A stretch of 64,000 bases of DNA from Candidatus Omnitrophota bacterium (GCA_023484085.1 JAMDAS010000017.1:1430-65429); one strand, 5' to 3'; counted from the stretch's first letter, positions 9,442 to 59,468 are shown. Numbers and translations are program-made. Notes: generated by a model not told the origin, from the letters alone.

Positions 9442-9647
9442 AATACCCCCTTTTATTATATATAAGTTTATATCACATAATTTAAAAAATGTAAATATTC
9501 CAGGTATAATTTACTTACCTGAAGTAGGAAATAAGTTCCGGATTGCTCTTCTCATCTTTGTAAAAACTTTCTTTCAAACAAAGTCTCAAAGACAATCCAA
9601 ACTTATTTCAAACTCCGTTCACTAAGTATTTACAAAAAATCAAAATT

Positions 9648-12481: not shown

Positions 12482-12494
12482 ATTATTCCTAATG

Positions 12495-17791: not shown

Positions 17792-19654
17792 TTAAACTCC
17801 TCCACCTCTTAAGCGGTAATATAATGTTTGTATTTCATTTAGCTCCAAATCAATGGATTCCTGGTTTTCCTCTTTATGTTTGATTGTTTTTTTAAGTTCA
17901 TCAATTTTTTTAGTATATACGGTTTTTGACATTACGGATACGCACTCATTAAAAATTTTTTCTTTTTTTTCCTTGTTAATTTCCTCGGATGCAAATGCAA
18001 ACTGTGATATAAAATTTATTGTATTCTCTTCCTGGAACTGTGAAACAAACGTTGAAAATTTAACACCTGATTCCCTGTTTTGTAAAGAAAATTCCAAAAA
18101 GTTTTTTATGTTCTCTGATAAAATATCCTTTCTGTTTATGATATTATTATAGAAACCAGGCTCCTGAAGAATAATCTCTATCAACAGTTTTTCTGCAACG
18201 TTATAAGACGAAACTTTTTTTACCGGCTTTTTTTCTTCCCTGTCTGGATCATTTACTTTAAGAGATTTTATCCTGTCAAATAAATCTTTTTCCTCTATGT
18301 TTAACATTTCCGACATTTTTTTGACATATATTTTCTGTTCAATCGTGTCAGGAATAAGTTCTATCAGTCTTAAGATTTCTGCAGCAAGTTTTGCCTTCCC
18401 TTTTGCACTTCCCGTATCATAAACCTGGGACCCAAGGGCTATTTTATATTCAACAAAATCTTTTGCTTCATTGATAAAATTCCTGAATGCATTTATGCCA
18501 TAGTTGTCAACAAAAGTATCAGGGTCAAAACCCATGGGGATAGGTACTATTTTAACATCAAACCCATTTCTAAGAATAGGCTCTAAACTTCTCAATGTTG
18601 CAGAACTACCAGCCTGGTCAGGGTCAAAACCCATGGGGATAGGTACTATTTTAACATCAAACCCATTTCTAAGAATAGGCTCTAAACTTCTCAATGTTGC
18701 AGAACTACCAGCCTGGTCAGGGTCAAAAACAAGAAGTATTTTTTCTGTCCATCTTTTAAGGGCTTTTAAATGAAAATCCGTCAGGGCCGTACCGAGAGGA
18801 GCAACAACGTTTTCAAGCCCATTGATATGAAGTTTCAGAAGGTCAAAATATCCTTCCACAATAATTACGAATCCCTGTTTCTTTATACTTTCCTTTGCCC
18901 AGTTTAAACCATAAAGAACCTGTCCCTTTTTAAATACATCATTTTCTGCAGTATTAAGATATTTGGGCTGAACGTTTTCATCTAAGGCTCTTCCCCCAAA
19001 ACCAATGACGTTATCCTTTATGTCAAATATCGGGATAATAAGTCTGTTCCTGAAATAATCCGTCAATTTCCCGGATTGGGGTTCATCCCTGGAAAAACTT
19101 TTTAAAATAAGCCCTGCTGAAATAAATTTTTCATAAGGGGCATCCTTTTCATCCAAATAACGTAAAAAACTATTACCTCCCGGGGCATATCCAAAAGAAA
19201 AACGTTTAAAACTTTCCTCTGAAAATCCACGTGAAGAAAGATACTCTAAAGAATTTTTATTTTGTCCAAGATTTTCAGAAAAAAATCTGACTGACAGCCT
19301 GTTCACTTCTAAAATATCATTCCTTTTTTTATTTTCCCCTGCCGTAATGCCCGGGATATATGCAAGTTTTATACCTGCAGTATTAGCAGCATTATAAACA
19401 GCCTCTGAAAAATCAGTATTTTCAATTTTCATGAGAAAATTTATAACGTTCCCCCCTGCTCCACATCCAAAACAATGAAAAATCTGTTTTTCAGGGCTTA
19501 CTAAAAAAGATGGGGTCTTTTCTTCATGAAAAGGACAGTTGGCTTTATAATTTCTGCCGGATTTTTTGAGAGTAATATATTTTGATACTACCTCATAAAT
19601 ATCTAATTTTTCAATTATTTCTGTAATTTTGCTCTGCGGAATCAATCGCTCCAT
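17792..19654 (-). CDS. dnaG: DNA primase DnaG (contains in-frame 33-aa tandem duplication)
   Basis: Zn-ribbon CPFHEEKTPSF...HCFGCGAGGN; TOPRIM motif LLVFDPDQAG. Immediately upstream of rpoD in the conserved dnaG-rpoD arrangement. Confidence 0.9.
   Translation of the reverse strand: MERLIPQSKITEIIEKLDIYEVVSKYITLKKSGRNYKANCPFHEEKTPSFLVSPEKQIFHCFGCGAGGNVINFLMKIENTDFSEAVYNAANTAGIKLAYIPGITAGENKKRNDILEVNRLSVRFFSENLGQNKNSLEYLSSRGFSEESFKRFSFGYAPGGNSFLRYLDEKDAPYEKFISAGLILKSFSRDEPQSGKLTDYFRNRLIIPIFDIKDNVIGFGGRALDENVQPKYLNTAENDVFKKGQVLYGLNWAKESIKKQGFVIIVEGYFDLLKLHINGLENVVAPLGTALTDFHLKALKRWTEKILLVFDPDQAGSSATLRSLEPILRNGFDVKIVPIPMGFDPDQAGSSATLRSLEPILRNGFDVKIVPIPMGFDPDTFVDNYGINAFRNFINEAKDFVEYKIALGSQVYDTGSAKGKAKLAAEILRLIELIPDTIEQKIYVKKMSEMLNIEEKDLFDRIKSLKVNDPDREEKKPVKKVSSYNVAEKLLIEIILQEPGFYNNIINRKDILSENIKNFLEFSLQNRESGVKFSTFVSQFQEENTINFISQFAFASEEINKEKKEKIFNECVSVMSKTVYTKKIDELKKTIKHKEENQESIDLELNEIQTLYYRLRGGGV
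18519..18730. repeat. Perfect 99-bp direct tandem repeat (2 full copies + ~12 bp) inside dnaG
   Basis: Unit agggtcaaaacccatggggataggtac...cagcctggtc is repeated identically. It duplicates DPDQAGSSATLRSLEPILRNGFDVKIVPIPMGF in frame. Confidence 0.9.
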
Positions 19655-27861: not shown

Positions 27862-27966
27862 ATATTCTCACCATCCACATTAACTGAAATTCTCACATAA
27901 GAAAAAAGAATAAGTTTGGATTGTCTCTTACTTTAAGCCAGTGTAAATATTTCTTAGGTCAGAATT

Positions 27967-28125
27967 TTAATTTATAAGCTCAAACTCTTCTTTTGGCGCA
28001 CCACATTCAGGACATAGCCAATCATCAGGCAGTGCTTCAAAATCTGTTCCCGGATTTATCCCCTGTGTACTATCACCAACTGCAGGGTCATATATGTATT
28101 CACAAACCTTGCATTTATATTTCAT
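27967..28125 (-). CDS. Rubredoxin
   Basis: Hand-found 52-aa ORF absent from the track: [18 protein letters not shown]...[19 protein letters not shown], with two CxxC knuckles. Confidence 0.8.
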
Positions 28126-35793: not shown

Positions 35794-35839
35794 TTCTCAT
35801 TATTTACTGTTAAGTGTTTTTATGATTATAATATCTTAT
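35794..35839. repeat. 46-bp direct repeat copy 1 (contains TTACTG-17-TATAAT promoter-like sequence)
   Basis: Identical to 36682..36727. Confidence 0.85.
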
Positions 35840-35894: not shown

Positions 35895-36296
35895 ATGATA
35901 CATTTTTATAGGATAAAAATGGCGATGTTAACTCATTATGAAAACTTTCTAATTTATACCGGGGAGTATTATTCCGTATATTTTCATGCGGAAAAAAAAG
36001 ATTGTTCCAGTGTATATGATTATTTTGAAAAATGCAACAAGATTATCCAGACTAATTTATTATTTCTTGTAAAAAGAATGGCTGATTTTGGCCGTATTTA
36101 TGATGAAACAAAATTTCGTTTGGAAGATAAACAAAATAAAATTTATTGTTTTAAGCCGAAAAACAAACGGTTTTTCTGTTTCTTTTTTGCGGGTAAAAAA
36201 ATAATAATCACTTCAGTCTATACTAAGAAAAAACAGAAATTGGATCAAGGTGAACTTAAAAAAGCGATTAAAATTAGAAAAGAATATTTTGCTTAA
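35895..36296 (+). CDS. Type II toxin, RelE/ParE superfamily (phage Gp49-like/HigB-like)
   Basis: Small basic ORF immediately upstream of, and overlapping, an XRE-HTH ORF. Gp49-like pattern. Confidence 0.5.
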   Translation: MIHFYRIKMAMLTHYENFLIYTGEYYSVYFHAEKKDCSSVYDYFEKCNKIIQTNLLFLVKRMADFGRIYDETKFRLEDKQNKIYCFKPKNKRFFCFFFAGKKIIITSVYTKKKQKLDQGELKKAIKIRKEYFA

Positions 36297-36312
36297 AAAC
36301 TGTGGGGGGAAA

Positions 36313-36582
36313 ATGAAAAAATCTATATTTGATAAAAAAATGGAAGATAAAAAATTCAGGGCCATTTATGAAGAAGTATCAGCAAAGATGAGCGTTGGAG
36401 AACAAATAGCTAAATATAGGTATGAAGCAAAAATCAGTCAGGCAGAATTGGCAGAAAAAGCCAAAACCAGCAGAACTGCCATAGCACGATATGAAAGAGG
36501 AAACTATGACAAATATAACATAACCACTCTAAAGAAGATTGCTCATGCTCTAAATAAAAACCTGACTATATCCATTACATAA
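36313..36582 (+). CDS. XRE-family HTH antitoxin
   Basis: HTH SQAELAEKAKTSRTAIARYERG. Start at the ATG after GGGGGG. Confidence 0.6.
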   Translation: MKKSIFDKKMEDKKFRAIYEEVSAKMSVGEQIAKYRYEAKISQAELAEKAKTSRTAIARYERGNYDKYNITTLKKIAHALNKNLTISIT

Positions 36583-36681
36583 AAAATCCCGTTGTGCCAT
36601 AATAAATCCACCCAAAACTAAGGTAATCTATTAGCGTTAAAAAGTAAATTTATATTTTCCTTCTCCTTGAGGGGAAAGGGC

Positions 36682-36727
36682 TTCTCATTATTTACTGTTA
36701 AGTGTTTTTATGATTATAATATCTTAT
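36682..36727. repeat. 46-bp direct repeat copy 2 (promoter-like, immediately upstream of hydrogenase maturation protease gene)
   Basis: Identical to 35794..35839. Confidence 0.85.
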
Positions 36728-36731
36728 ACAT

Positions 36732-37205
36732 ATGGAAACATGGACAAAAAAGCTGTCTAAAAAAATCATGGGATGGAAGAAAATATGCATTCTTGGCGTC
36801 GGCAGCATAGAAAAAGGTGATGATGGCATTGGGGTGTACTGTGCAGAAGAATTAAAAAAACGTATGAACATTCCCAGAATACTTGTTATTGATGCAGGTA
36901 ATGTTCCTGAAAGCTGGACAGGAAAAATCAGAGCTTTTTCACCTGACTGGACAATAATCATAGATGCCTGCAAGAAAGGAGAAAAACCAGGCTCTATATT
37001 TATCGTTGATAAAAATGCGATTTCCTATAGCGACGTTTCAAGCCATAGAATTCCTCTTTCAGTGGTAATGTCCTTTCTTGAACAAACAATAAAAACAAAG
37101 GTAATATTTATCGGGATTGAGCCTGAAAACATGGATGGAGAGAATCTATCGGAAAACATAAAACATTCAGGTGAAAAGATAGTAGAGTTCCTTAGCATTC
37201 TATGA
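36732..37205 (+). CDS. [NiFe] hydrogenase maturation endopeptidase (HycI/HybD/FrhD family)
   Basis: ILGVGSIEKGDDGIG motif typical of hydrogenase maturation proteases. Length 157 aa. Confidence 0.75.
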   Translation: METWTKKLSKKIMGWKKICILGVGSIEKGDDGIGVYCAEELKKRMNIPRILVIDAGNVPESWTGKIRAFSPDWTIIIDACKKGEKPGSIFIVDKNAISYSDVSSHRIPLSVVMSFLEQTIKTKVIFIGIEPENMDGENLSENIKHSGEKIVEFLSIL

Positions 37206-37261
37206 TAACAGGTTGTCTCTCATGATGTTTGCTGGACGAAATCCGAACTTTTCTCAAAGTA

Positions 37262-37806
37262 TCAGTCAGGTTTTCTCATTATAAACAAATACTTAAATCC
37301 TCTCAAATAAAAATTAAATTGCCTTGCTCGATTATGCCAAATTCCCGTGTTTGATGTTTGATTATGCCTTGTTAAACAAACAATATCAACAGGTACAAAA
37401 TATTTTTCCAATCTCTGCCACATTAAAAATCCTACCGCTGTGAATTTCTTTTTTATCCATTGGTCCGCAATAACCCAAGCCATTACTTTACCGGGCTTCA
37501 AAATTCTTGTAATTTCTGAAACAGTTTTTTCTAATTCATCATAAAATTTTGTTTTCTCACAAGAATGTTTCCATTTACAACCTGCAATCCTAATGCTCTA
37601 ACCTCGTCGGTGATAATATACTCAATCAATTTTTCAAGGTTTTTACCCTTGAAAGCACGCCAAGATTGTTCGTGGTCGTTTCCGCTAAAATCTTTTCTAT
37701 GCTGTTCTTTAGCTTCTTTCAAAACATTTGAAATATGACGATATGCTTGCATGCCATATTTTTTCTTTTTTGTTTCGTAAATTTTGATGAGATCGTCTAT
37801 GGTCAT
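37262..37806 (-). pseudogene. Frameshifted ORF pair downstream of the methyltransferase; possible restriction endonuclease remnant
   Basis: Two adjacent ORFs (91 aa and 79 aa) in different frames, 30 nt apart. Context only; no motif recognised. Confidence 0.25.
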
Positions 37807-37810
37807 AGTT

Positions 37811-39213
37811 TTATTTTTCCATTATTAATATATATTCTGTTGGATAAACAAAAATTTTATTTTTATCGCTTATCCCGGCAAACTTTCCGGTTTTTTCATC
37901 TCTGACAGACGGCAAATTTTTTGAGGGTATTTCTCTTTTAATAACATTCACAATTTTCAACCCTAAATTTTGTAATTGTTCTGCAAAAACTTCGGCATTT
38001 AATACCTCAACACCCTTTAAGCTGGTATTACCGATAACAATACAAGTTTTTCCACCCTTTTTTAGCATTCTCTTTTCATTTCAACAAAAACTTGGTTCAT
38101 TTCGCTGAAATAGGTTGATACTTCTTCGGCGGTTTTTTTATCTTTTTTCAGCAATTCATTTCTTATTTTTTCTGCAATCTCACTATTCAAAACTAAATCT
38201 TTTTTGCTGTAATAGGAAGTGCCAATAAATCTTTTACGAAAATAGCTTAAGTCTTTTGTGTATTCTAACCACAAAGCAGTCAGCTGGTGTAAATCAGTAT
38301 ATTCGTAAGATGTAACATAAGGTGGTGAAGTAACAATCAGACTAACAGAATTATCTTTAACGGGAATTGTTCGTGCATCTGTGCAATAAACTTGACTGGG
38401 TATTCCTATATGATTTTTTTCTTTTAATAATTTGTAAAATTGAGTATTTCCTCTAATCATCATTTTTATCTGTTTGTAAAAAGTCAGTATTGTATCAGAA
38501 AGTTTTTTATTTAGGTCCCTTGTTGGTTTATTGCTTTTCTGCAATCAAATAGAATAATTTTTCAATATATTAGAAAATCCGCAATAGAAAAAATCTCTAA
38601 TATCCTGATCTTTCAGTTTTGAAATTTCATTAAAGATAAAAGCAAGTTTTTTTTTCTCCTCAAGCTTAAACCAATAATCAATTCTTTCATGTTCGGAGAC
38701 TTTTACTTTTGTATCTTTGTTGTATGTGTTTAATTTTGCTTTCAGGGCAATAAATGACTTTTCTATTTTTTGAGGGTTAATCGGGGTGATTTTTGCTTTT
38801 GTGATTAAAACAGCTACCGGGTTTATATCAACTCCGACTGAAGGCCGTCCCATAACCTTTGATTCAACAAGCGTTGTTCCGCAACCGCCAAAAGGGTCAA
38901 CAATTAAATCCCCTTTCTTTGTGTATTTTTCAGCCAAACGAGAAACTATTTGAGGGATAAATTTTGCAGGATAGCGGTGATATCCATGAGTAATATAAGC
39001 TGTGTCTTTTCTGGTTTTGTCAGAAAAAGACCACGAATAGTCAATTTTTGTTTTTGAAAACAGTGTTGTTACTTGGCTCATATTATTTTGCCCTGCCAAT
39101 TTTATTAAACCATATCTTTTATTCATGTCAATAGCAATTTTTACTTGCTCTCTCACTGCAAAAAACATGAGGAAAGTTTCTTTTTCCATACTTTTATCAA
39201 GGTTGCCTCTCAT
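37811..39213 (-). pseudogene. N4/N6 DNA methyltransferase disrupted by an in-frame TGA and a frameshift
   Basis: Motif I IVDPFGGCGTT in the 222-aa piece and motif IV TSPPY in the 160-aa piece. The pieces are in the same frame separated only by TGA at 38545-38547. The third piece (85 aa) is in another frame. Confidence 0.6.
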
Positions 39214-39235: not shown

Positions 39236-39353
39236 CCAACCGTCGCATTCGCTTCGCTACGCTCCTTAAGGGGGAACAGGTTCCCCCTTAATCTTCCCCC
39301 TACTACATGGAAAAAGCCTCTTTTTCCATACCTTTATCAAGGTTGCCTCTCAA

Positions 39354-39425
39354 TGGAGCAGACCGGAGTTGAACCGGCAACCTTCCGCATGCGAAGCGGA
39401 CGCTCTCCCATTGAGCCACTGCCCC
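39354..39425 (-). tRNA. tRNA-Ala (anticodon CGC)
   Basis: Hand fold. Acceptor GGGGCAG/CTGCTCC with the G3:U70 Ala identity pair. Anticodon loop TTCGCAT. T-arm GCCGG-TTCAACT-CCGGT. Confidence 0.85.
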
Positions 39426-39580
39426 ATCATCCGTTCCTAGTTTATCATTTTTCAATCAATCCATAAAATTTAGCTAACCTCGCCGGGAAGTCCCCTTCCG
39501 TAAGGTGGGAATGAAAGACGAATACTTGATTTTATTTTCAGTTATGAAATAATATCTTAGAAATTCAAAATACAAAAAAA

Positions 39581-49676: not shown

Positions 49677-49840
49677 GTTTTAAATAGATTCAATCATGAC
49701 GTATTTTTTCATCGGAATTTTTTTTGTAATATTTTGTGATTAAATTCACAATATACTACAAATATGATAATTTTAGTAATAATTCATAGACTTAAATGCA
49801 GCACAGGGCTATTTCAAACACACAATAAGGATTGTTTAAG

Positions 49841-51328
49841 ATGAATAATGTGAATTTTTTCACACTTTTAACAATTTTTGTTCCGATTATAGGCTCATTC
49901 ACTGTGCCTGTTATCTCTTTTTTTTCAAAAAGGCTTAGTACATACTGGGCATGTACAATTGCATTTTTTACGGCTCTATCACCTTTTTTTCTTATTCCTT
50001 ATGTAATATCAGGAGTCCAGTTCGTCTTTGGAAAGCATCTCTATGGGGGAATAAATTGGACACTTAGCGTTGATGCCCTGTCAGTTTTTGTCTCAATAGT
50101 CTCAAGCCTTATATCTGCCTTTATTGTCCTTTATTCCCTGCACTATATAAAAGAAACAGATAACCAGACTGAATACTATTTTATGGTGCTTCTTTTTATT
50201 GGTTCAATGATGGGTCTTGTTTATTCTGCAAATCTTATATTCTTATATGTTTTCTGGGAAATTGCCGCAATATGTTCATGGAGACTTATAGGATTTTACA
50301 GGGTAAGAGAATTTGTCATAAAGGCAGATAAGGCATTTCTCATGACATTTTTGGGAGCGGTTTTGATGCTTATCGGATTCCTGCAGATTTACCATACAAC
50401 ACATACATTTGACATAACGAAGATGAAAGGGACAGGGATACCAATCTCTGCATTTCTGCTTATTCTTGCAGGAATGCTTTCAAAGTCTGCTACATTTCCC
50501 CTTCACTCATGGCTGCCGGATGCAGGTGTCGCACCATCAACTGTAACAGCCCTTCTCCATGCAGCAGTACTTGTAAAAATAGGTGTGTACGTTGCTGCAA
50601 GACTGTTCTGTGATACGTTTGTTCTCCCGCACATATCCTATCCCCTGATAGCAATTATCGCGGTATTTTCAAGTTTAATTGCTGCAGGAGCTGCAGCAGT
50701 TGATTATGACATGAAGAGGATTCTTGCCTATTCTACAATAAGTCAGATTGGGTATATTTTTATTGGGTTTGCGGTTATGAATCCTCTTGGATTTGCAGGA
50801 GCTACCTTTTATATTCTTGCCCATGGATTTTCAAAAGCGGGCTTGTTTTTATGCGCGGGCATTATTGAGCATAATACCCACACAAAGGATATAAGAAAAC
50901 TTGGCGGATTGATAAAAACCATGCCGCTTACGGCTGTAGCATTTCTTATGTGCGCTTTTGCAACGATTGGACTGCCTCCTTTCAGCGGATTTTTTGCAAA
51001 ATTCATGGTTATTATGGGTGCGGTAAAAGCCGGGGAAACAGGGCTTGCTGCACTTGCATTGTTTATTGCGCTTCTTACGATGTTTTATCTTTTCAGGATG
51101 TTTCACGCCATATTTTTGGGAAATCCGAACCATGAGGCAAATCTGCCGGTTGTAGTAAAAGAAAGAACACCTCTTATGGTCTCCACTGTCATTGCATTTT
51201 CATTTTTTGCTCTTCTTACAGGAGTATTTGTCAGGTATCCGATGAAGATAGTACACTCTGCCACCTACGGTATGTTACATATAAATACTATAACAAAAAC
51301 AAAATTTACAGGAGTAGCGGAAAGATAA
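49841..51328 (+). CDS. Complex I NuoM/N-like (Mrp MrpD-like) antiporter-type membrane subunit
   Basis: Proton-antiporter family motif WLPDAGVAPSTVTALLHAAVLVKIGVY. 14-TM-like. ATG 49841 after AAGGA. Confidence 0.75.
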   Translation: MNNVNFFTLLTIFVPIIGSFTVPVISFFSKRLSTYWACTIAFFTALSPFFLIPYVISGVQFVFGKHLYGGINWTLSVDALSVFVSIVSSLISAFIVLYSLHYIKETDNQTEYYFMVLLFIGSMMGLVYSANLIFLYVFWEIAAICSWRLIGFYRVREFVIKADKAFLMTFLGAVLMLIGFLQIYHTTHTFDITKMKGTGIPISAFLLILAGMLSKSATFPLHSWLPDAGVAPSTVTALLHAAVLVKIGVYVAARLFCDTFVLPHISYPLIAIIAVFSSLIAAGAAAVDYDMKRILAYSTISQIGYIFIGFAVMNPLGFAGATFYILAHGFSKAGLFLCAGIIEHNTHTKDIRKLGGLIKTMPLTAVAFLMCAFATIGLPPFSGFFAKFMVIMGAVKAGETGLAALALFIALLTMFYLFRMFHAIFLGNPNHEANLPVVVKERTPLMVSTVIAFSFFALLTGVFVRYPMKIVHSATYGMLHINTITKTKFTGVAER

Positions 51329-51332
51329 AAAA

Positions 51333-53195
51333 ATGGTAAATAATAATTTACTTCTTCCAATCTGGGTTCCTGTTGTCTTTGCATTTGGCGTTTTTGTTTT
51401 CAACGGGAAAAAATGGCTCAGGGAAATATTTGCAGTTTTGGGCACCCTGATTTTTCTGTTTATAACGTGGAATCTTTTTTCTATCAGGGCCATGGACGTT
51501 TATTATAGGGTTCCATGGGCTGGTTTTGGTATGAGTTTTGATTTAAGGCTTTACTCTTTCAGCGGGTTCATTCTCCTATGGCTTGGCATCTTTACTTTGA
51601 TTGTTACACTTTTTTCAACTGTAAAACTTGTTAACCACCCAAGGGCAAATCTTTATTATACCTATATATTTTTGACAGCATGTTTTGGCAGCGGCGCGGT
51701 TCTTTCAAATAATTTTGTCCTTATGGTCTTTTTCTGGGAAGGGCTTTTACTTACTTTATATGGGTTTATCTGTCTTGGTGGCGAAAATTCTTACAGGACA
51801 GCGGTTAAAAGTCTGATTATAGTCGGCTTATGTGATTTTTCCATGATTCTTGGTATAGGAATTATATGGTTTCTTACCGGAACGTTTACAATGTCTAAAA
51901 TATCACTGGTTCCATCCGGTCCGGCAGCAGCTGCGTTTTTCCTTATGATGGCAGGGGCACTCGGAAAAGCAGGCGCTGTTCCTTTTCATACATGGATACC
52001 GGATGCTGCAGATGATGCGCCTGTAACCTTTATGGCTCTTATTCCTGCATCTATTGACAAGCTGATTGGCATTTATCTTCTTGTCAGACTCTGCCTGGAT
52101 TTTTTTGTCCTCAGGCTTAATGACCCTTTCAGTATTACGTTGATGGTAATAGGCGGCCTTACAATTTTAATTACAGGATTCATGGCTTTTATCCAGGATG
52201 ATTTTAAACGGATTCTTTCCTATTCCACAGTAAGCCAGGTGGGTTATATGATTCTCGGAATTGGAACTTTTCTGCCCGTTGGAATAACCGGCGGGTTATT
52301 CCTTATGCTTAATCATTCAATATATGAAAGCGGACTTTTTTTAAGTGCAGGGTCTATTGAACATAAAACAGGAACAACCCGGCTTAATAAGCTTGGAGGA
52401 CTGGGAAAACGTATGCCTGTTACTGCAGTATGTTTTATTATATTTGGTCTTTCAATTTCAGGTATATGGCCGTTTAACGGGTTTATTTCAAAAGAAATGA
52501 TTATTCATAGTTCTATAAATACAGGATGGACTATATTTGCATTATCGGCCTATATAGGAGCAATACTTACAGTTGCTTATATGCTTAAGGCAGGCCATAG
52601 TATATTTTTTGGTCCCGAACCATCAGGAACCAAACAGGTAAAAGAAAGTGAATCCTTATTGCTTATTCCTATGATCATTCTTGCATTTTTATGCATACTT
52701 TTCGGGCTTGATAGTAAGATGCCAATCAAGTTTTCCATCGCTCCTATTTTAAAGAGTCACTTTCCATTAGTAAATCTGAACTTCTACAGTCATGCTCTGT
52801 CAGTTTTTACTCCTGCTGCAGGAATTACCATACTGTGCATTATCATCGCCATTGCAATGTATTTTCTTGGCTGGAAAAAGAGCGGGGGAAAAGCCTCTGT
52901 TTCCTCTGAATCTTTGCGTTATGCCTTGATATTCAAGACGCTGTATGACATGGCTGAACGAAAGTTTTTTGATATTTATGAACAGGGAATAGTATTCCTG
53001 TCCGCTCTTTCAGAAGCTGTTTCCATTGTTTTTGACAGGGGAATGGATTATATTTATGAAACAGCGTTTGTTAATACAGGGAAGAAGATAACTTCTTTGT
53101 TGAAAAGTGCGCATAACGGGAAATATGCCAACTATCTTGCGTGGCTGATTGGAGGCTTGTTTATCGTGGCATGGATATTAATACTGAAATTCTGA
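51333..53195 (+). CDS. Complex I NuoL-like (MrpA-like) antiporter-type membrane subunit
   Basis: 620 aa. HTWIPDAADDAPVTFMALIPASIDKLIGIYLLVR motif. Confidence 0.75.
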   Translation: MVNNNLLLPIWVPVVFAFGVFVFNGKKWLREIFAVLGTLIFLFITWNLFSIRAMDVYYRVPWAGFGMSFDLRLYSFSGFILLWLGIFTLIVTLFSTVKLVNHPRANLYYTYIFLTACFGSGAVLSNNFVLMVFFWEGLLLTLYGFICLGGENSYRTAVKSLIIVGLCDFSMILGIGIIWFLTGTFTMSKISLVPSGPAAAAFFLMMAGALGKAGAVPFHTWIPDAADDAPVTFMALIPASIDKLIGIYLLVRLCLDFFVLRLNDPFSITLMVIGGLTILITGFMAFIQDDFKRILSYSTVSQVGYMILGIGTFLPVGITGGLFLMLNHSIYESGLFLSAGSIEHKTGTTRLNKLGGLGKRMPVTAVCFIIFGLSISGIWPFNGFISKEMIIHSSINTGWTIFALSAYIGAILTVAYMLKAGHSIFFGPEPSGTKQVKESESLLLIPMIILAFLCILFGLDSKMPIKFSIAPILKSHFPLVNLNFYSHALSVFTPAAGITILCIIIAIAMYFLGWKKSGGKASVSSESLRYALIFKTLYDMAERKFFDIYEQGIVFLSALSEAVSIVFDRGMDYIYETAFVNTGKKITSLLKSAHNGKYANYLAWLIGGLFIVAWILILKF

Positions 53196-53196
53196 C

Positions 53197-53356
53197 ATAA
53201 GTTATGGATTTTTCTTTACTCCGCCTAAAAGATTGGCGGACTATCGTGCTTTGAAAAAAACCACGACGCCTGTTTTTACCATATAGGTAGTTGCTTTCCA
53301 AAGAAGGCGGAGAGTATGCACAGGTAGTGCATGTTCTGTGCATAATCCAAACTTAT
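53197..53356 (+). repeat. Structured intergenic repeat, copy 1 (~160 bp)
   Basis: Near-identical to 54849..55008 and 59268..59426. Contains nested hairpins and terminal inverted repeats. Confidence 0.9.
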
Positions 53357-53385
53357 CATGGGTAAAGTTCAAATTATTTATAAAA

Positions 53386-54846
53386 ATGTTTATATTTATT
53401 GTTTTTCCTCTTGTAGGTGCAGGGATTATGCCCCTGCTCGGGAAATTATCAAAAAAGAAATGGCCTGATATTCTTTCTGCCATGGTACTTCTTATTCTAT
53501 TGGTATGTTCAGTCGTTATTTTTTCCCCTTCCCTTAAAGAACCGTGGCAGTATATCCAAAATGTGCATTTTTTAAATGAGCCTGTTCATATTAATCTTGC
53601 CCTTGACAGTTTTAACGGGCTTTTCCTTATTCTTATATCTTTTATCAGTTTTACTATCAGTCTTTTTTCCATAGACTATATGGAAATCTACGGGTCAAAG
53701 CAAATATATTATGCACTGCTTCTTGTTATTGTCGCAGCCCTGAATGGGCTGGTCCTTTCAAAAGACTTATTTGGCATATACATTTTTCTTGAGTCTGCCG
53801 CTATTGCATCATTTGGACTTGTTGCATTTAGCTTAGAAGCAGAAGCACTGGAGGGCGCCTATAAATATCTTTTGTTATCTGTAATTGCATCCGGATTTAT
53901 TCTTCTTGGTATAGTACTGTTGTTTGCCATAACAGGAAGTCTTTCCCTTGATGGAGTAAAAAAGGTAATGGAGATTGTTAATAACAAGTCTGTTATTACA
54001 CTCTGTTCTATTTTGTTTATCGTGGGTTTTGGACTGAAAACCGCCCTAGTTCCATTTCATTCATGGATGCCGGATGCATATACAAAAGCACCTGCAACGT
54101 TTCCTGCAATAAGTTCAGGGCTGATTATAAAAATTACAGGAATTTATGTTTTGGCAAGAATATTTTTTAATATGTTTCAAATAAATGCAGGGGTTTCTTC
54201 CGCTCTTCTGTTTTTGGGGATGTTTTCCATTATTGTGGGCACTTTTCTTGCATTAGGTCAGAAAGATATAAAAAGAATGCTTGCATATTCCTCTATAAGC
54301 CAGGTGGGATATATTATAGCAGGCTTTGGGGTTGGTACGGCTCTTGGCGTAATTGCAGCAATTTTCCAGCTTTTCAATCATTCAATATTCAAATCCCTGC
54401 TTTTTCTTAATGCAGGCTCACTGGAAAAATCAACAGGGACACAATCGCTTGATGAGATGGGGGGATTGGAGAAAAAAATGCCTGTTACAGCAACAACAAA
54501 TGCAGTTGGTCTGCTTTCTACTGCAGGTGTTCCTCCTTTGAACGGATTCTGGAGCAAACTGCTTATTATTATGGCGCTGCTCCAGGCGAAATTATATATT
54601 TATGCCATTATTGCAATCTTTATGAGTGTTCTTACCCTGTGGTATTTCCTGATTGTTCATCGTCAGGCGTTTTTTGGAAAATTAAATGAGAAATGGAGTA
54701 GCGTCAGGGAAGCACCCTTCTGGATGTCTCTCTCAATGATTATATTGGCCCTGGCGTGTTTTGTCATAGGTATTGCTTTTTACATTGTGCTTAAACGTTT
54801 TATCATACCGGCATCAGTACCGCTGGCTGGTTTTATTATGAAATAG
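53386..54846 (+). CDS. Complex I NuoM/N-like antiporter-type membrane subunit
   Basis: HSWMPDAYTKAPATFPAISSGLIIKITGIY motif. The ORF-track start at 53338 lies inside the repeat, so the start was moved to MFIFIVFPLVG. Confidence 0.7.
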   Translation: MFIFIVFPLVGAGIMPLLGKLSKKKWPDILSAMVLLILLVCSVVIFSPSLKEPWQYIQNVHFLNEPVHINLALDSFNGLFLILISFISFTISLFSIDYMEIYGSKQIYYALLLVIVAALNGLVLSKDLFGIYIFLESAAIASFGLVAFSLEAEALEGAYKYLLLSVIASGFILLGIVLLFAITGSLSLDGVKKVMEIVNNKSVITLCSILFIVGFGLKTALVPFHSWMPDAYTKAPATFPAISSGLIIKITGIYVLARIFFNMFQINAGVSSALLFLGMFSIIVGTFLALGQKDIKRMLAYSSISQVGYIIAGFGVGTALGVIAAIFQLFNHSIFKSLLFLNAGSLEKSTGTQSLDEMGGLEKKMPVTATTNAVGLLSTAGVPPLNGFWSKLLIIMALLQAKLYIYAIIAIFMSVLTLWYFLIVHRQAFFGKLNEKWSSVREAPFWMSLSMIILALACFVIGIAFYIVLKRFIIPASVPLAGFIMK

Positions 54847-54848
54847 AA

Positions 54849-55008
54849 ATAAGTTATAGATTTCTCTTTACTCCGCCTAAAAGATTGGCGGACTATCGTG
54901 CTTTGAAAAGAACCACGACGCCTGTTTTTACCATATAGGTAGTTGCTTTCCAAAGAAGGCGGAGAGTATGCACAGGTAGTGCATGTTCTGTGCATAATCC
55001 AAACTTAT
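54849..55008 (+). repeat. Structured intergenic repeat, copy 2
   Basis: See copy 1. Confidence 0.9.
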
Positions 55009-55027
55009 TATAATTTAAGGAAAGTAT

Positions 55028-55498
55028 ATGACTATATTTATTCTTATATTGCTGATAATTTTTTCAATTCTTGCTGTGTTTTTAAGGGACCTTTTAAAGG
55101 CTGCATTAAGTCTTGCAGCAGCAAGTATATGCCTAACAATTATATTTTTCCTACTTCATGCTTTTTATGCGGGGGTTTTTGAAATATCCGTTGTTGCAGG
55201 GCTCATAATAGTTCTTTTTGTAACAACGATTTCACTTACCAGGTCGGAAACACCTGTTAAAGAATCTCTGATGGCGTATTTTTTCTTTCCTATATTTTTT
55301 ATCCTTATTATAGGGGTTGATTTGATGATATATAAAAGATTTTCTATGGGTATCCCATCTGTTACCGGGACTATTTTCCATGGAAACTTTGGTGATGTTT
55401 TCTGGGGAAAAAGGTCTTTTGACCTGATTGGACAGGTTTGCATAATCTTTGCCGGGGTTTTTTCTGTTCTAACTCTTTTCAGGAGGAAAAATGAGTAA
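55028..55498 (+). CDS. NuoJ-like membrane subunit
   Basis: AALSLAAASICLTIIFFLLHAFYAGVFEISVVAGLIIVLFV resembles the NuoJ core (..A.F.A..e..VYaGAi.VLF). Confidence 0.5.
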   Translation: MTIFILILLIIFSILAVFLRDLLKAALSLAAASICLTIIFFLLHAFYAGVFEISVVAGLIIVLFVTTISLTRSETPVKESLMAYFFFPIFFILIIGVDLMIYKRFSMGIPSVTGTIFHGNFGDVFWGKRSFDLIGQVCIIFAGVFSVLTLFRRKNE

Positions 55499-55829
55499 TC
55501 CAGCAGGCTCGTTAACGTTATTAAACAGCCAGTGGCTTCTATACATGGGAATTGTCATTATTCTTGTATTTATTGGCATATATTGTCTTTTAACAATGAA
55601 AAATATTATAAAACTTTTAATCGGGATAGAGGTTTTTTCCAAAGGGATTTCTCTTGCAATCATTGCAACCGGGTTTGCAAAAAAGAACATCCTGCTTGCA
55701 CAGGGTATAATGATTACTTTTATCGTCATTGAAGTGGCCGTCATTGCAGTGGCTCTTGGTATAGTAATAAATATTTATAACAAGACAGGAAGTCTTGACA
55801 TAAGAAAGATAACCAAACTAAAAGGATAA
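55491..55829 (+). CDS. NuoK/MrpC-like membrane subunit
   Basis: 112 aa, 3 TM. LLIGIEVFSKGISLAIIATG resembles the NuoK signature. Confidence 0.65.
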   Translation: MSNPAGSLTLLNSQWLLYMGIVIILVFIGIYCLLTMKNIIKLLIGIEVFSKGISLAIIATGFAKKNILLAQGIMITFIVIEVAVIAVALGIVINIYNKTGSLDIRKITKLKG

Positions 55830-55831
55830 AA

Positions 55832-56167
55832 ATGGATAATAGTATAAAAATATTGCTTTCTCCGCCACTGGCATTTTTGTTTTTTTTATGTGTCTCTGCC
55901 GGAATATATAAAATTGCCGGTAAATTTTCCGCAAAGGGAAAACCATCACAGGGGAAACTAAAAACATATGTTGGCGGTGAGGACATACAGGGATATAAAA
56001 TACAGTTTGGATACAAATCCTTTTTCTTTGTCGCGATTTTCTTTACAATGATAGAAGTGTCAACTCTGGTTATTGCTACTATCCATAGCAGGTTTGTTCT
56101 TCTTGGAATGTTTTATCTTGCAATGATTTTTCTTGCAATTTTTGCGTTAATAACAAGGGAAACATAA
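55832..56167 (+). CDS. Small membrane subunit, NuoA-like
   Basis: 111 aa. TYVGGEDIQGY...FFFVAIFFTMIEVSTLVI resembles NuoA (pYEcG...flaiLFllFDvE). Confidence 0.4.
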   Translation: MDNSIKILLSPPLAFLFFLCVSAGIYKIAGKFSAKGKPSQGKLKTYVGGEDIQGYKIQFGYKSFFFVAIFFTMIEVSTLVIATIHSRFVLLGMFYLAMIFLAIFALITRET

Positions 56168-56170
56168 AAA

Positions 56171-56599
56171 ATGATAGAGAAAATTATTAAATGGTCACGA
56201 TTAAAATCTCCATGGGTTCTTCATCTTAACACAGGAGGATGCAATGCCTGTGATATTGAACTGCTTGCGGCGCTGATGCCCCGGTTTGACGTTGAAAGAT
56301 TCGGAATACTGTCAAAAGCCACACCCCGGCATGCGGATGTGCTTGTTTGTATAGGACCTTTGACACGTCAGACAAAAGACAGGGTGGTAAGAATATACGA
56401 ACAGATGCCTGAACCAAAATTTGTCATCGCTGTGGGTGCATGTGCAATGTCCGGCTGTGTGTACAGAGGGGCTTATAATATCGTAGGTGGTGTAGACCAG
56501 GTTCTTCCTGTAGATATGTATGTACCGGGATGTCCTGCAAGACCGGATGCAATAATTGATGGAATAGTAAAATTATTAACAAAGATTGGAAAGGGGTAA
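56171..56599 (+). CDS. [NiFe] hydrogenase group 4 small subunit (NuoB homologue)
   Basis: GGCNACDIE, GACAMSGC and PGCPARP proximal [4Fe-4S] Cys motifs. Confidence 0.85.
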   Translation: MIEKIIKWSRLKSPWVLHLNTGGCNACDIELLAALMPRFDVERFGILSKATPRHADVLVCIGPLTRQTKDRVVRIYEQMPEPKFVIAVGACAMSGCVYRGAYNIVGGVDQVLPVDMYVPGCPARPDAIIDGIVKLLTKIGKG

Positions 56600-57073
56600 A
56601 TGATGGAAAAGTCTCTTATAAGCAGGTTAAAAGAATTTTTAGCGGAAAAAATAGTTGAATCAGCAAATCCATCCAAAAGGAGAATATTCATAAAGGTGTT
56701 GCCTGAAAATCTTCCGGATACCATACAAATTTTGAAAGAAAAGACAGGTTTTACACATTTATCAACTATTACAGGCGTGGATAAAGGGGAAACGTTTGAA
56801 ATCCTGTATCATTTTGCCAATAAAATTGCTGTGCTGACAGTCAGGACAGAAGTCCCTGCAGGTAAACCGGAAATAAAAACAATTACGAAGATTATTCCAG
56901 GGGCAATTCTGTATGAAAGAGAACTCCAGGATATGTTTGGAATAAAGGTAATGGAAATTCCTGACCCGAGGCCACTTATCCTGCCTGATGGATGGCCTGA
57001 AGGTAATTATCCATTAAGAAAAAACTGGAAATACCAGAGGCCTGAGGAAATAATACCTGGAGGGGGAAAATAA
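56600..57073 (+). CDS. NuoC-like (30 kDa) hydrogenase subunit
   Basis: ERELQDMFGI...PDPRPLIL motif of the NuoC/HycE-N family. Confidence 0.75.
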   Translation: MMEKSLISRLKEFLAEKIVESANPSKRRIFIKVLPENLPDTIQILKEKTGFTHLSTITGVDKGETFEILYHFANKIAVLTVRTEVPAGKPEIKTITKIIPGAILYERELQDMFGIKVMEIPDPRPLILPDGWPEGNYPLRKNWKYQRPEEIIPGGGK

Positions 57074-58278
57074 TGTCTATAACCATACCCATTGGGCCAC
57101 AGCATCCTGCTCTAAAGGAGCCTATAAGCTTAAAGATGACGTTTGATGGGGAAATCATAAAAGATGCTGACATAAGACTCGGCTACAATCATAGAGGTCT
57201 TGAAAAGCTTTTTGAGGGTAAAAGTTATGTCCAAAACATTTATGTTACAGAAAGAATATGCGGGATATGTTCCCATTCCCATACAACCTGTTTTGTCAAT
57301 GGCGTTGAAAAACTTCTGGGTATTGAAATACCCAAACGGGCTTCGTACATAAGAATGCTTATTGGTGAACTTGAAAGGGTCCATAGCCATCTTTTATGGC
57401 TTGGTGTGGCTGGCCATGAAGCAGGGTTTGAATCATTTTTTATGTATACATGGAGGGACAGGGAGATTGTAATGGACATTCTTGAAGAATCTTCCGGCAA
57501 CAGGGTTCACTATGCCATAAATACCATCGGCGGGGTAAGAAGGGATATTGATGAAACACAAAGGACAAGAATCCTAAATTCCCTGAAAATCCTGAAAGAA
57601 AGAACAGACTATTATAAAAATCTGGGAACTACAGAGCCCAGTTTTGTAGCAAGACTGTCAGGCATAGGAATTCTTCCCAGGGAACAGGCTCTTTCTTTAT
57701 GCTCCGTAGGACCAACCCTTCGCGCCTCAAATATTGACATGGACGTAAGAAAAGATGACCCTTATCTTGCATATGATGAGGTTCCGTTTGAGGTATCTAC
57801 TGCTGATACATGCGATGTCCTTGGCAGAACAGTGGTAAGAATAAAAGAATTATTCCAGTCATACAATATTATAGAATATATTCTCAGGAACCTGCCTGCC
57901 GGGGATATAAAAGCAAAGGTGCCAAGAAAGGTTCCTGCAGGTGAGACTGTCAGCAGATATGAGGCTCCAAGGGGTGAAAACATCCACTATATAAAAAGTA
58001 ATGGAACAGAAAAACCGGAAAGACTGAAGGTAAGGGCTCCAACACTCGCCAATTATCCTGCTACGGTTGCAATGTTAAAAAATGGCTTTATTGCTGACAT
58101 ACCGCTTATATTTGCCGCCATAGACCCATGTATATGCTGTGCTGAACGAATGGTAGAGGTAAAAGATACAAAAACAGGAAGAGCGGAAATAAAGACATTT
58201 GATGAATTAAAAAAATATTCCAGGGATTTTTATAAAAACCACAAAAAAATAAAAAAGGATACCGTATGGCCATTCTAA
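57073..58278 (+). CDS. [NiFe] hydrogenase group 4 large subunit (NuoD homologue, Ni-binding Cys retained)
   Basis: N-terminal L1 motif RICGICSHSH and C-terminal L2 motif DPCICCAER are both present. Confidence 0.85.
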   Translation: MSITIPIGPQHPALKEPISLKMTFDGEIIKDADIRLGYNHRGLEKLFEGKSYVQNIYVTERICGICSHSHTTCFVNGVEKLLGIEIPKRASYIRMLIGELERVHSHLLWLGVAGHEAGFESFFMYTWRDREIVMDILEESSGNRVHYAINTIGGVRRDIDETQRTRILNSLKILKERTDYYKNLGTTEPSFVARLSGIGILPREQALSLCSVGPTLRASNIDMDVRKDDPYLAYDEVPFEVSTADTCDVLGRTVVRIKELFQSYNIIEYILRNLPAGDIKAKVPRKVPAGETVSRYEAPRGENIHYIKSNGTEKPERLKVRAPTLANYPATVAMLKNGFIADIPLIFAAIDPCICCAERMVEVKDTKTGRAEIKTFDELKKYSRDFYKNHKKIKKDTVWPF

Positions 58279-59234
58279 AAACATTTTTTTATCTTTTGGT
58301 ATATCCGGGGTTAGTGTTTCTAATTGTATATTCTCTTTTTTGTGAATGGTTTGACAGGAAAACGTATGCGCGTCTGCAAAACAGGAGAGGTCCCCTGCAT
58401 ACAGGAAAAGCAGGACTGCTGCAGCCTGCAGCAGATTTAATAAAGCTTTTTTCCAAAGAGGACATTGTCCCTGAAAAAGCAGACAGGATTATGTTTACGG
58501 CACTTCCTGTTTTTGGTCTTGCAATAATTTTAACTTCCGCCATGTACCTGCCCATCTGGAATTATTCCATGACAAAAACAGGTTTTAATTCTTTTCCCGG
58601 GGACATTATAGTGCTTATATACCTTTTAAGTCTTCCCACAATAATACTATTTCTTGCAGGATGGCATTCAACAAGCTTTTTCTCAACTATCGGAGGGGTA
58701 AGGGTGATAACAATGTTTTTTGGCTATGAAATCCCTTTGCTTTTATCTGTCCTGAGTCCTGCTATCCTTGCAGGCTCATGGCGTCTTGCTGAAATTGCAC
58801 AATTTTTTCAGGCTAATCCCGGACTGCTTTCTGTCAACGTTATAGGGTTTTTTATTGCTCTTGCAGCACTCCAGGCAAAGCTTGAAAGAACCCCGTTTGA
58901 CATACCCCATGCAGAAACTGAAATCGTTGGAGGCACATTTACAGAATATACAGGAAGGAAACTTGCATTTTTCAGGCTTATAACCGACATAGAAATGGTT
59001 GTAGGCAGCGGTCTGATTGCAACAGTTTTTCTTGGTGGCTTTCCAGGCGGGATATTCTCATCTTTTATCTGGTTTATTATAAAAACACTTTTTGTCATAT
59101 TTCTGCTTTCTGTAATAAAAGCGGCATTTTCAAGGCTCAGGATTGACCAGATGGTCAGGTTCTCATGGTATATTCTTGCTCCATTGGGAATACTGCAGAT
59201 TTTTATAACGTTGCTTGTTAAACTGAAATTCTGA
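58266..59234 (+). CDS. NuoH-like membrane subunit (HycD/EchB/MbhM homologue)
   Basis: RRGPLHTGKAGLLQPAADLIKLF N-terminal region and 8-TM pattern of NuoH. Confidence 0.8.
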   Translation: MAILKTFFYLLVYPGLVFLIVYSLFCEWFDRKTYARLQNRRGPLHTGKAGLLQPAADLIKLFSKEDIVPEKADRIMFTALPVFGLAIILTSAMYLPIWNYSMTKTGFNSFPGDIIVLIYLLSLPTIILFLAGWHSTSFFSTIGGVRVITMFFGYEIPLLLSVLSPAILAGSWRLAEIAQFFQANPGLLSVNVIGFFIALAALQAKLERTPFDIPHAETEIVGGTFTEYTGRKLAFFRLITDIEMVVGSGLIATVFLGGFPGGIFSSFIWFIIKTLFVIFLLSVIKAAFSRLRIDQMVRFSWYILAPLGILQIFITLLVKLKF

Positions 59235-59267
59235 TATAAGAAATATGGACAATGAACAAAGTAAGAG

Positions 59268-59426
59268 ATAACTTTGGGTTTCTCTTTTCTCCGCCTAAAA
59301 GATTGGCGGACTATCGTGCTTTGAAAAGAACCACGACGCCTGTTTTTACCATATAGGTAGTTGCTTTCCAAAGAAGGCGGAGAGTATGCACAGGTAGTGA
59401 TTGTTCTGTGCATAACCCAAAATTAT
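59268..59426 (+). repeat. Structured intergenic repeat, copy 3 (most diverged; changes fall in loops or are compensatory)
   Basis: See copy 1. Confidence 0.9.
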
Positions 59427-59468
59427 CATGGGAAAGACAATCCAAATTTATCGGAAAGGAGTATTTTA

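Follow-up and report, generated by a model that had tools for sequence, protein, structure and literature searches.

The hydrogenase operon and the repeat at its gene junctions

The DNA analyzed here, referred to as the window, is a stretch of 64,000 nucleotides from a Candidatus Omnitrophota bacterium (GCA_023484085.1 JAMDAS010000017.1:1430-65429). It contains an operon of 11 genes which, judged by its sequence, is of the group-4 [NiFe]-hydrogenase/complex-I-like type. Pfam domains identified three Proton_antipo_M subunits, followed by NuoJ-, NuoK-, NuoA-, NuoB-, NuoC-, NuoD- and NuoH-like proteins and finally by a NuoI-like protein with 4Fe-4S domain; a second module begins near 62.1 kb. The NuoN-like protein of the host is identical to MCL5674683.1. 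Three junctions within this operon (NuoL-like/NuoN-like, NuoN-like/NuoJ-like and NuoH-like/NuoI-like) harbor copies of a structured repeat of about 160 nucleotides, which probably represents a new MITE family (miniature inverted-repeat transposable elements). The flanking genes had been named in the same way by an earlier reading of the sequence alone (the original prediction), with which Pfam agrees.

A repeat search of the window revealed three direct repeats on the plus strand, made up of 166-nt units at positions 53194-53359, 54846-55011 (97% identity) and 59264-59429 (90% identity). For comparison, the orthologous operon was taken from 80 species representatives, and a covariance model built from the three copies was run over the window and the 80 related loci (1.4 Mb). 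The model set the cores of the copies at 53197-53356, 54849-55008 and 59268-59426, with a mutual identity of 96-98%. Thus, both approaches recovered the three copies in the places and in the orientation in which the original prediction had put them. A 22-mer of the core occurs three times in the window, while no occurrence was expected from shuffled sequences. Copy 1 (160 nt, plus strand) is located at the NuoL-like/NuoN-like junction and comprises four or five internal hairpins enclosed by terminal inverted repeats (TIRs) of 13 nt, ATAAGTT[A]TGGATT and AATCCAAACTTAT. Copy 2 (160 nt, plus strand), at the NuoN-like/NuoJ-like junction, is 98% identical to copy 1, and copy 3 (159 nt, plus strand), which borders on the gene of the NuoI-like 4Fe-4S protein, is 96% identical to both of them and has the variant termini ATAACTTTGGGTT and AACCCAAAATTAT. 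The TIRs pair at 13 of 13 positions in copy 1 and at 12 of 13 positions in copies 2 and 3. As a search key for a matching insertion sequence, the end of the element can be given as ATAAGTTTGGATT(G/A)T.

The helices that had been named previously do exist in the copies, namely the terminal helix ATAAGTTaTGGATT/AATCCAAACTTAT, TCGTG/CACGA, ATGCACAG/CTGTGCAT and the pairing of CTCCGCC with GGCGGA or GGCGGAG. The long-range helix CTCCGCC...GGCGGAG does not enclose approximately 95 nt, as had been stated, since the actual interval is 80 nt, and the energy minimum favors the local hairpin CTCCGCC/GGCGGA. This left subterminal hairpin and the right one (ATGCACAG/CTGTGCAT) are unrelated to each other. 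The plus strand folds with -52.2 kcal/mol, clearly better than shuffled sequences (z = -4.9), while the minus strand reached almost the same value (-50.9 kcal/mol, z = -4.3). No family of Rfam 15 matched the element, on which the best scores were 15-16 bits compared to thresholds of 60-64; across the whole window, the gathering score was passed by two tRNAs only. Neither within nor beside the copies was a terminator-like site detected, and a role as terminator or attenuator was rejected for this reason. The 3' hairpin contains a weak promoter-like match (TGCACA-18-CATAAT, 9/12).

The longest open reading frame (ORF), which is also the only one to span the core, encodes 60 amino acids and lies on the minus strand. 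A search with this peptide in the protein collection yielded no candidates, and no homologue was found among 5.8 billion proteins. Starting from an ATG in the 3' hairpin, the minus-strand frame is open through all three copies (53161-53343, 54780-54995 and 58808-59413; 60, 71 and 201 amino acids). Since homologues were not found, the frames are probably spurious, as the original prediction had it for the peptides called inside the copies, but gene callers will still report them.

The similarity between the copies is not confined to the cores. Copies 1 and 3 have another 13-19 nt in common on the upstream side, CTGAAATTCTGA[C/T]ATAAG (or AACTGAAATTCTGA[C/T]ATAAG), which encode the final three codons and the stop codon (L-K-F-stop) of the preceding gene. 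In copy 1, this 5' extension (CTGAAATTCTGAC, 53183-53196, plus strand) supplies the end of the NuoL-like gene and it is also found in copy 3 and in the short relative M2 described below. Copy 2 has a degraded 5' extension (ATGAAATAGAA, 54838-54848, plus strand), which provides M-K-stop of the NuoN-like gene and shows weak homology to that of the other two copies (about 15 of 20 positions by eye). Stop codons are present in all three frames of the left extension. On the downstream side, copies 1 and 3 have about 25 nt in common, CATGGG[T/A]AAAG...TTAT; in copy 1, this 3' extension (CATGGGTAAAGTTCAAATTATTTAT, 53357-53381, plus strand) ends with a second, degenerate right-end motif. With its extensions the element measures approximately 200 nt, without them approximately 160 nt. 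The view that the copies are strictly intergenic therefore applies to the 160-nt core but not to the extensions, which hold the last codons and the stop codon of the upstream gene.

The surroundings of copy 3 are mosaic. Upstream (59222-59267, plus strand), the extension CTGAAATTCTGATATAAG, which encodes L-K-F-stop of the NuoH-like gene, is followed by a 32-nt piece (ATAAGAAATATGGACAATGAACAAAGTAAGAG, 59236-59267). Downstream (59427-59451, plus strand), CATGGGAAAGACAATCCAAATTTAT was found, the last 19 nt of which match the right end of a second short relative, M1, at 18 of 19 positions. From the arrangement of these sequences, the 159-nt copy 3 looks as if it were nested in an older short element whose left part is the 32-nt piece. 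Moreover, the similarities of the cores and of the flanks are in conflict, since the core of copy 1 is closest to copy 2, while its flanks are closest to copy 3.

Empty junctions and further members of the family

The closest representative, a sister species, is 83% identical in the NuoD-like subunit and 86% identical, at the amino acid level, in the NuoN-like subunit. Its three junctions have lengths of 4, 13 and -4 nt, compared to 190, 181 and 234 nt in the window. The same compact junctions were found in ten independent assemblies of the sister species, and nearly all of about 70 further relatives are compact at these three positions as well. Therefore, the three copies are insertions specific to the lineage of the window and not ancestral. 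Ancestrally, the NuoH-like and NuoI-like genes overlap by ATGA, and the ribosome-binding site resides within the end of the NuoH-like gene. In the window, the insertion has replaced the C-terminus of the NuoH-like protein, and an AAGGAG site is now situated downstream of the element. A downstream ribosome-binding site has been kept at sites 2 and 3. Site 1 lacks an obvious Shine-Dalgarno sequence, as does its empty counterpart in the sister species.

The statement that no other copy occurs in the window holds true for full-length copies but has to be qualified, since two short relatives were identified elsewhere. M1 (76 nt, ATAAGTTCCGGATTG...CAATCCAAACTTAT, 9531-9606, plus strand) possesses the same termini as the full copies and forms a single long hairpin (z = -6.9); its neighbors are the genes of an ABC ATPase and an alanine racemase, both on the minus strand. 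In M2 (88 nt, 27883-27970, plus strand), the left-end motif AATAAGTTTGGATTGTCTCTTAC is enclosed by the extension motif CTGAAATTCTCACATAAG and the inverted counterpart of the latter, CTTAGGTCAGAATTTTAA; the element is surrounded by a flavo-diiron-type gene and by rubredoxin-like/rubrerythrin genes, all of them on the minus strand. The left-end motif of M2 is the exact reverse complement (18/18) of the right end of M1, and the other end matches between M1, M2 and the copies comprise 18-21 of 19-23 nt; the E values from blastn-short lie between 7e-5 and 0.013. With up to two substitutions, the right-end motif occurs five times in the 64-kb window compared to one occurrence in the 1.4 Mb of relatives. 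As M1 and M2 lie between unrelated minus-strand genes, the family is restricted neither to the operon nor to its orientation, and it exists in several sizes. The three full copies and the two short relatives are, without exception, intergenic or at gene ends. A Logan contig provided another 6.8 kb past the edge of the window, in which no copy is present. A Logan contig stops 20 nt into copy 3; since other contigs of that assembly stop without a repeat, the break carries no weight as an indication of a high copy number. The cumulative GC skew of the window has its minimum at about 36000-39000, with genes mostly on the minus strand to the left and mostly on the plus strand to the right, as expected near a replication origin.

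A single homologue was detected outside the window, both by blastn and by the covariance model (30 bits). It is an 81-nt stretch in the sister species, with approximately 80% identity to the element's 3' half; the full-length alignment given by the covariance model is unconvincing over the 5' half. The fragment adjoins a tRNA-Leu(CAG) gene away from the operon and is flanked on both sides by a perfect 76-nt direct repeat composed of the region upstream of the tRNA and its first 13 nt. Filled alleles of this 157-nt polymorphism, which can be written as A-X-A and lies immediately before the tRNA gene, overlapping it, are present at L094:14676-14908 and L002:9809-10041, an empty one at L093:14676-14751. 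Four assemblies have the filled allele and five the simple A-tRNA arrangement, the assemblies being 99.7-99.97% identical. The insertion is thus a genuine recent polymorphism and not an assembly artefact. Microhomologies, GGCGG and TAAT, were found at its joints. The 10-bp 3' hairpin is still present in the fragment, where a single compensatory change has occurred (ATGCACAG/CTGTGCAT to ATGCGCAG/CTGCGCAT), while 5 of approximately 12 bases of its loop differ. By contrast, three of the six pairs of the internal helix GCCTGT/ATAGGT are broken.

The duplicated tRNA-Leu segment also contains ATAAGATATAGATT (L002:9843-9884, compared with window 54849-54893), which matches the left end of copy 2 at 13 of 14 positions and is followed after 22 nt by TGGCGGA, a sequence that is found 23 nt after the left end in the element. 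The alignment of the tRNA-Leu upstream region with the 5' part of the element is marginal, however, as its score was reached in 9 of 500 shuffles for copy 2 and in 154 of 500 for copy 1. This similarity could be the remnant of a solo end, it could reflect an origin of the left part from the tRNA region, or it could be due to chance. It is less likely than the RNA punctuation considered below that the left part was derived from the 5' region of tRNA-Leu and that the family spreads by template switching, which would make the repeat a bacterial counterpart of short interspersed nuclear elements (SINE-like). This tRNA-Leu also has a second direct repeat, of 64 nt, on its 3' side (L002:10089-10152 and 10217-10280, 78% identity). 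It takes in the last 24 nt of the tRNA, resembling the attachment scar of an integrative element, and a terminator-like hairpin is located between its copies.

Other searches were unsuccessful. No exact occurrence of a 22-mer was found in genome, metagenome and viral collections, and when collections of plasmids, phages and E. coli were queried by blastn with the extended element, no match was revealed either. A degenerate pattern derived from two lineages (CTTTCCAAAGAAG N5-10 TATGCNCAG) matched nine metagenome sequences, all of which are coding. They were rejected as relatives because they turned out to be ribosomal protein L2 genes ('LLSKEG.YAQV') and an unrelated membrane protein, with neither a hairpin nor further similarity. 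A 37-nt sequence at window positions 53290-53330 and in the same stretch of copies 2 and 3 (AGTTGCTTTCCAAAGAAGGCGGAGAGTATGCACAGGT, read as LLSKEGGEYAQV) is 82-86% identical to a conserved part of the L2 genes of the metagenome contigs L083 and L084. The resemblance to rplB was judged to be an artefact of the search pattern rather than homology. Finally, an apparent 87-nt indel at L098:15490-15500 in a public MAG scaffold proved to be a scaffolding gap, consisting of 10 consecutive N between duplicated ends, and not an element.

Mobile element, RNA module or product of recombination

Taken together, these data make it probable that the repeat is a new family of MITEs, i.e. of non-autonomous elements with TIRs which are mobilized in trans. 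The copies are small and non-coding (160-nt core), they have 13-nt inverted ends that recur in M1, and they are insertions, as is evident from the empty orthologous junctions and from the polymorphic family fragment in the sister species. According to this model, a transposase encoded elsewhere would act on the element in trans, possibly with duplication of a TA target, and three insertions would have occurred at cistron boundaries of an ancestrally compact operon. Such insertions are tolerated, on this model, since the stop codons in the three frames of the left end close the upstream gene after two to three new codons and since the downstream ribosome-binding site was retained at sites 2 and 3. 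As there is no terminator inside the copies, they are almost certainly part of the operon mRNA and should fold there. Effects on stability, processing or translational coupling would then be a by-product and not the cause of the element's presence. Among the options of the original prediction was a structured MITE family, and in this respect it is supported, but its preference for selection on RNA structure over a decaying MITE is not supported in view of the empty sites, the short derivatives outside the operon, the statistically nil covariation and the folding of both strands.

The mosaic sites and the coexistence of full copies and size variants are reminiscent of Chunjie and QMITE (PMC10969869). 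Chunjie of Geobacter uraniireducens Rf4 is a MITE of 178-235 bp with TIRs, of which full, shorter and partial intergenic copies exist (PMC10969869, summarizing Chen et al. 2008). Like the window element, it is non-autonomous, bounded by TIRs, occurs in size variants and can reside inside an operon without destroying it. On the other hand, clear direct repeats are present at the ends of Chunjie, and dozens of its genomic copies have been counted, compared to three copies in one operon here; the two are set apart by their descriptions, not by a comparison of their sequences. Enterobacterial repetitive intergenic consensus sequences (ERIC, also known as intergenic repeat units, IRU) are imperfect palindromes of about 127 bp with TIRs and TA at the termini, which are transcribed, intergenic and able to alter the stability of upstream mRNA (PMC3184786). 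They too are often found in operons or at 3' ends of genes and fold in mRNA, and those of Yersinia modulate mRNA decay. However, they belong to another phylum, and the present element is longer, multi-branched and overlaps the end of the upstream coding sequence. Homology to ERIC was not detectable by blastn (word size 11), since the extended element found no match in 5,426 genomes of E. coli, a species in which copies of ERIC are present.

The Correia elements (CREE/NEMIS) of Neisseria have a size of 100-157 bp, TIRs, TA-type flanks and ends that can create promoters; they are co-transcribed with adjacent genes, and RNase III is able to bind or cleave the hairpin in their RNA (PMC2649163, PMC3184786). 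Compared by description, not by sequence, they differ from the window element in having inverted repeats of 26 bp and a binding site for integration host factor (IHF), whereas the latter has 13-nt ends and only a weak promoter-like match. Repetitive extragenic palindromes (REPs) are single hairpins of 20-40 nt with a GTAG/CGTC head and without TIRs (PMC3733652). As structured extragenic repeats located between operon genes, which can stabilize upstream mRNA, REPs and bacterial interspersed mosaic elements (BIMEs) are similar to the repeat described here, but the latter is a multi-branched structure of 160 nt bounded by TIRs and lacks the defining features of REPs. REP/BIME arrays are mobilized by RAYT transposases. 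In its mode of action, the repeat resembles Chunjie as well as ERIC and Correia, and by analogy with the latter two (PMC3184786, PMC2649163), effects on mRNA decay or translational coupling are plausible. Palindromic elements derived from IS200/IS605 have similar subterminal hairpins at both ends and no TIRs. Neither feature is seen in the window element, in which TIRs are present and the left and right hairpins are unrelated. A strand-specific insertion of the IS200/IS605 type was rejected because of the TIRs and because M2 is found in the same orientation across the GC-skew minimum.

Several observations weigh against a MITE. No transposase family was recognized among 20 ORFs of the window scanned around the operon and the short relatives, and no inverted pair of end motifs at the distance typical of insertion sequences was found in the window or in the 1.4 Mb of relatives. 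Direct repeats do not flank ATAAG...CTTAT; all copies have TA on either side of AGTT...AACT, but this TA belongs invariably to the repeat itself, and the empty sites of the sister species are too diverged for a base-by-base alignment. Furthermore, three full copies reside within 6 kb and in one orientation, while none exists in the other 58 kb or in the 6.8 kb beyond, so that the copies are more clustered than random transposition predicts. The flanks shared by copies 1 and 3 beyond the TIRs could mean copying by recombination instead of transposition, and the tRNA-Leu event seems to fit a double template switch better than a cut-and-paste mechanism. Finally, the terminal substitutions of copy 3, four on two pairs, would be improbable if random (p ~0.005), which indicates that the two ends do not evolve independently. 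This coupling is equally expected of TIRs read by one transposase or of hairpin-templated repair and does not single out RNA.

It is conceivable, on these grounds, that the repeat spread without a transposase, by recombination or by template switching during replication, as has been proposed for some REP/BIME-like or tRNA-linked repeats, and that its inverted termini are structural only. In addition to the 13-19 nt upstream and about 25 nt downstream which copies 1 and 3 have in common, the closeness of the copies (within 6 kb), the conflict between core and flank similarity, which suggests gene conversion, the perfect 76-nt duplication of the A-X-A polymorphism with microhomologies of 4-5 nt at both joints and the lack of both a clear target-site duplication and a transposase among the 20 ORFs scanned would agree with such a process. 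We nevertheless regard it as quite unlikely, because 13-nt TIRs are common to elements with differing interiors (M1, M2 and the full copies), as is classic for ends defined by a transposase, and because the 5' extension of M2 has its own inverted partner and is more likely part of the element than host flank. Besides, the element is far larger than REPs and does not possess their GTAG/CGTC-tagged single hairpin (PMC3733652).

Another possibility is that the copies act as an exapted cis-acting RNA module which splits the 11-cistron transcript or uncouples the translation of subunits, thereby tuning their stoichiometry. Such a module could provide entry sites for RNase III/E or barriers to 3' exonucleases and thus give the segments of the transcript separate stabilities. 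All three copies are in the transcribed orientation, have a strong predicted structure and lack an internal terminator, and the coupling of the NuoH-like and NuoI-like genes has certainly been changed by the replacement of the ATGA overlap. The preservation of the 10-bp 3' hairpin in the sister species, with a compensatory change next to a diverged loop, points in the same direction, as do the changes of mRNA decay or RNase III cutting known from ERIC and Correia (PMC3184786, PMC2649163) and the independent filling of this operon's junctions by other structured repeats in relatives. On the other hand, neither the sister species nor about 70 relatives have the element at these junctions, and it is therefore dispensable for the operon. 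The short relatives are oriented opposite to the genes around them, the folding of the minus strand is almost as good as that of the plus strand, which likewise fails to single out RNA, and half of the GCCTGT/ATAGGT helix is broken in the sister fragment.

Covariation, by which the RNA reading was to be checked, did not give a significant signal with RNAalifold and shuffles. The covariation term was +0.45 kcal/mol with one of 54 pairs compensated, and in the four-sequence alignment, the observed score was reached in 163 of 500 shuffles; the data consisted of three near-identical copies and one fragment, so that the power of the test was almost nil. The previous assertion that substitutions fall in loops is partly correct, but about 7 of approximately 11 variable columns belong to the terminal helix. 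There, copy 2 has one broken pair (G to A), a disruptive change. Copy 3 exhibits one compensated pair (A-U to G-C), another pair in which both partners were substituted, leaving a C.A mismatch, and loss of a bulge. Consequently, the joint change of its termini, thought to preserve pairing, does so at one pair and not at the other. Altogether, an RNA module is an unlikely explanation of the three copies, and we doubt that they have been co-opted as intra-operon RNA punctuation that breaks coupling and sets segment stability. If structured mobile repeats had been retained for this reason at the cistron boundaries of these very long operons for membrane-bound hydrogenases, punctuation would explain why the junctions of the same operon were independently filled by unrelated hairpins in several lineages, namely in the host genome and in the WOR-3-like relatives.

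An independent small RNA gene or ribozyme, triplicated by chance, has very little probability. Although the multi-branched fold (z ~-4.9) is not explained by any known family, the element is not delimited by a promoter and a terminator, with the 9/12 promoter-like match being the only candidate, and it is bounded by TIRs and accompanied by short derivatives. Neither exact nor degenerate scans recovered a true homologue from the genome, metagenome and viral collections, and in 1.4 Mb of relatives, a single fragment was all that the covariance model detected. A MITE mobilized in trans is thus the explanation that we favor.

Inserts at the junctions of related operons and other features of the window

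The orthologous operon has been enlarged in other lineages, too. Many of its junctions are extended by 90-280 nt in WOR-3-like relatives, in L012 at least 6 of 10, and inserts also occur in some Aminicenantes relatives. They are located at L012:3610-3790, 7138-7429, 9221-9509 and 12255-12509, L010:1198-1324 and 2279-2467, L009:8296-8572, L008:11192-11338, L040:10669-10816 and L079:6267-6492, and belong to palindromic families unrelated in sequence to the window element. One family with inverted ends (AAATCCGAAATCCGAAAT...) was found at the D/H and H/I junctions of L010, the K/A junction of L009 and the M1/L and H/I junctions of L012 (the M1 of this junction being a gene and not the short relative). 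A second family resides at B/C in L012 and at D/H in L008 and L040. One type of element has CCTGGATCATTCA...TGAATGATCCAGG ends, and the operon of L012 additionally contains REP/BIME-like arrays of TGTAG and hairpins. That one and the same family occupies different junctions depending on the species corresponds to the behavior of mobile elements. The cistron boundaries of this operon are recurrent, general landing sites.

A few other repeats were noticed in the window. Within a 620-aa ORF on the minus strand (17792-19654), there is a perfect 99-nt tandem duplication (18519-18716) consisting of two copies of 33 codons each. A perfect 46-nt direct repeat (35794-35839 and 36682-36727), the copies of which are 888 nt apart, surrounds a small Gp49-like (toxin-type) gene just upstream of the gene for the hydrogenase maturation protease HycI; the pair could mark the borders of a small inserted cassette. 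A 48-nt repeat (39165-39212 and 39305-39352, 88% identity) lies beside tRNA-Ala(CGC) (39353-39426), with a weaker copy at 49839-49886, and one of its copies extends over the start of a DNA methylase ORF that looks truncated.

As a MITE family, the repeat is mainly of importance for annotation, since it gives rise to spurious ORFs and breaks in short-read assemblies. The insertions have rewritten the final codons of three hydrogenase subunit genes and removed one ancestral overlap. They are also a record of small mobile DNA that was active recently in Omnitrophota, a phylum for which nearly all knowledge comes from metagenomes. The repeated colonization of one conserved 11-gene operon by unrelated palindromes in several candidate phyla offers a comparative system in which insertions that are merely tolerated may be distinguished from those that are used for the tuning of a polycistronic transcript.

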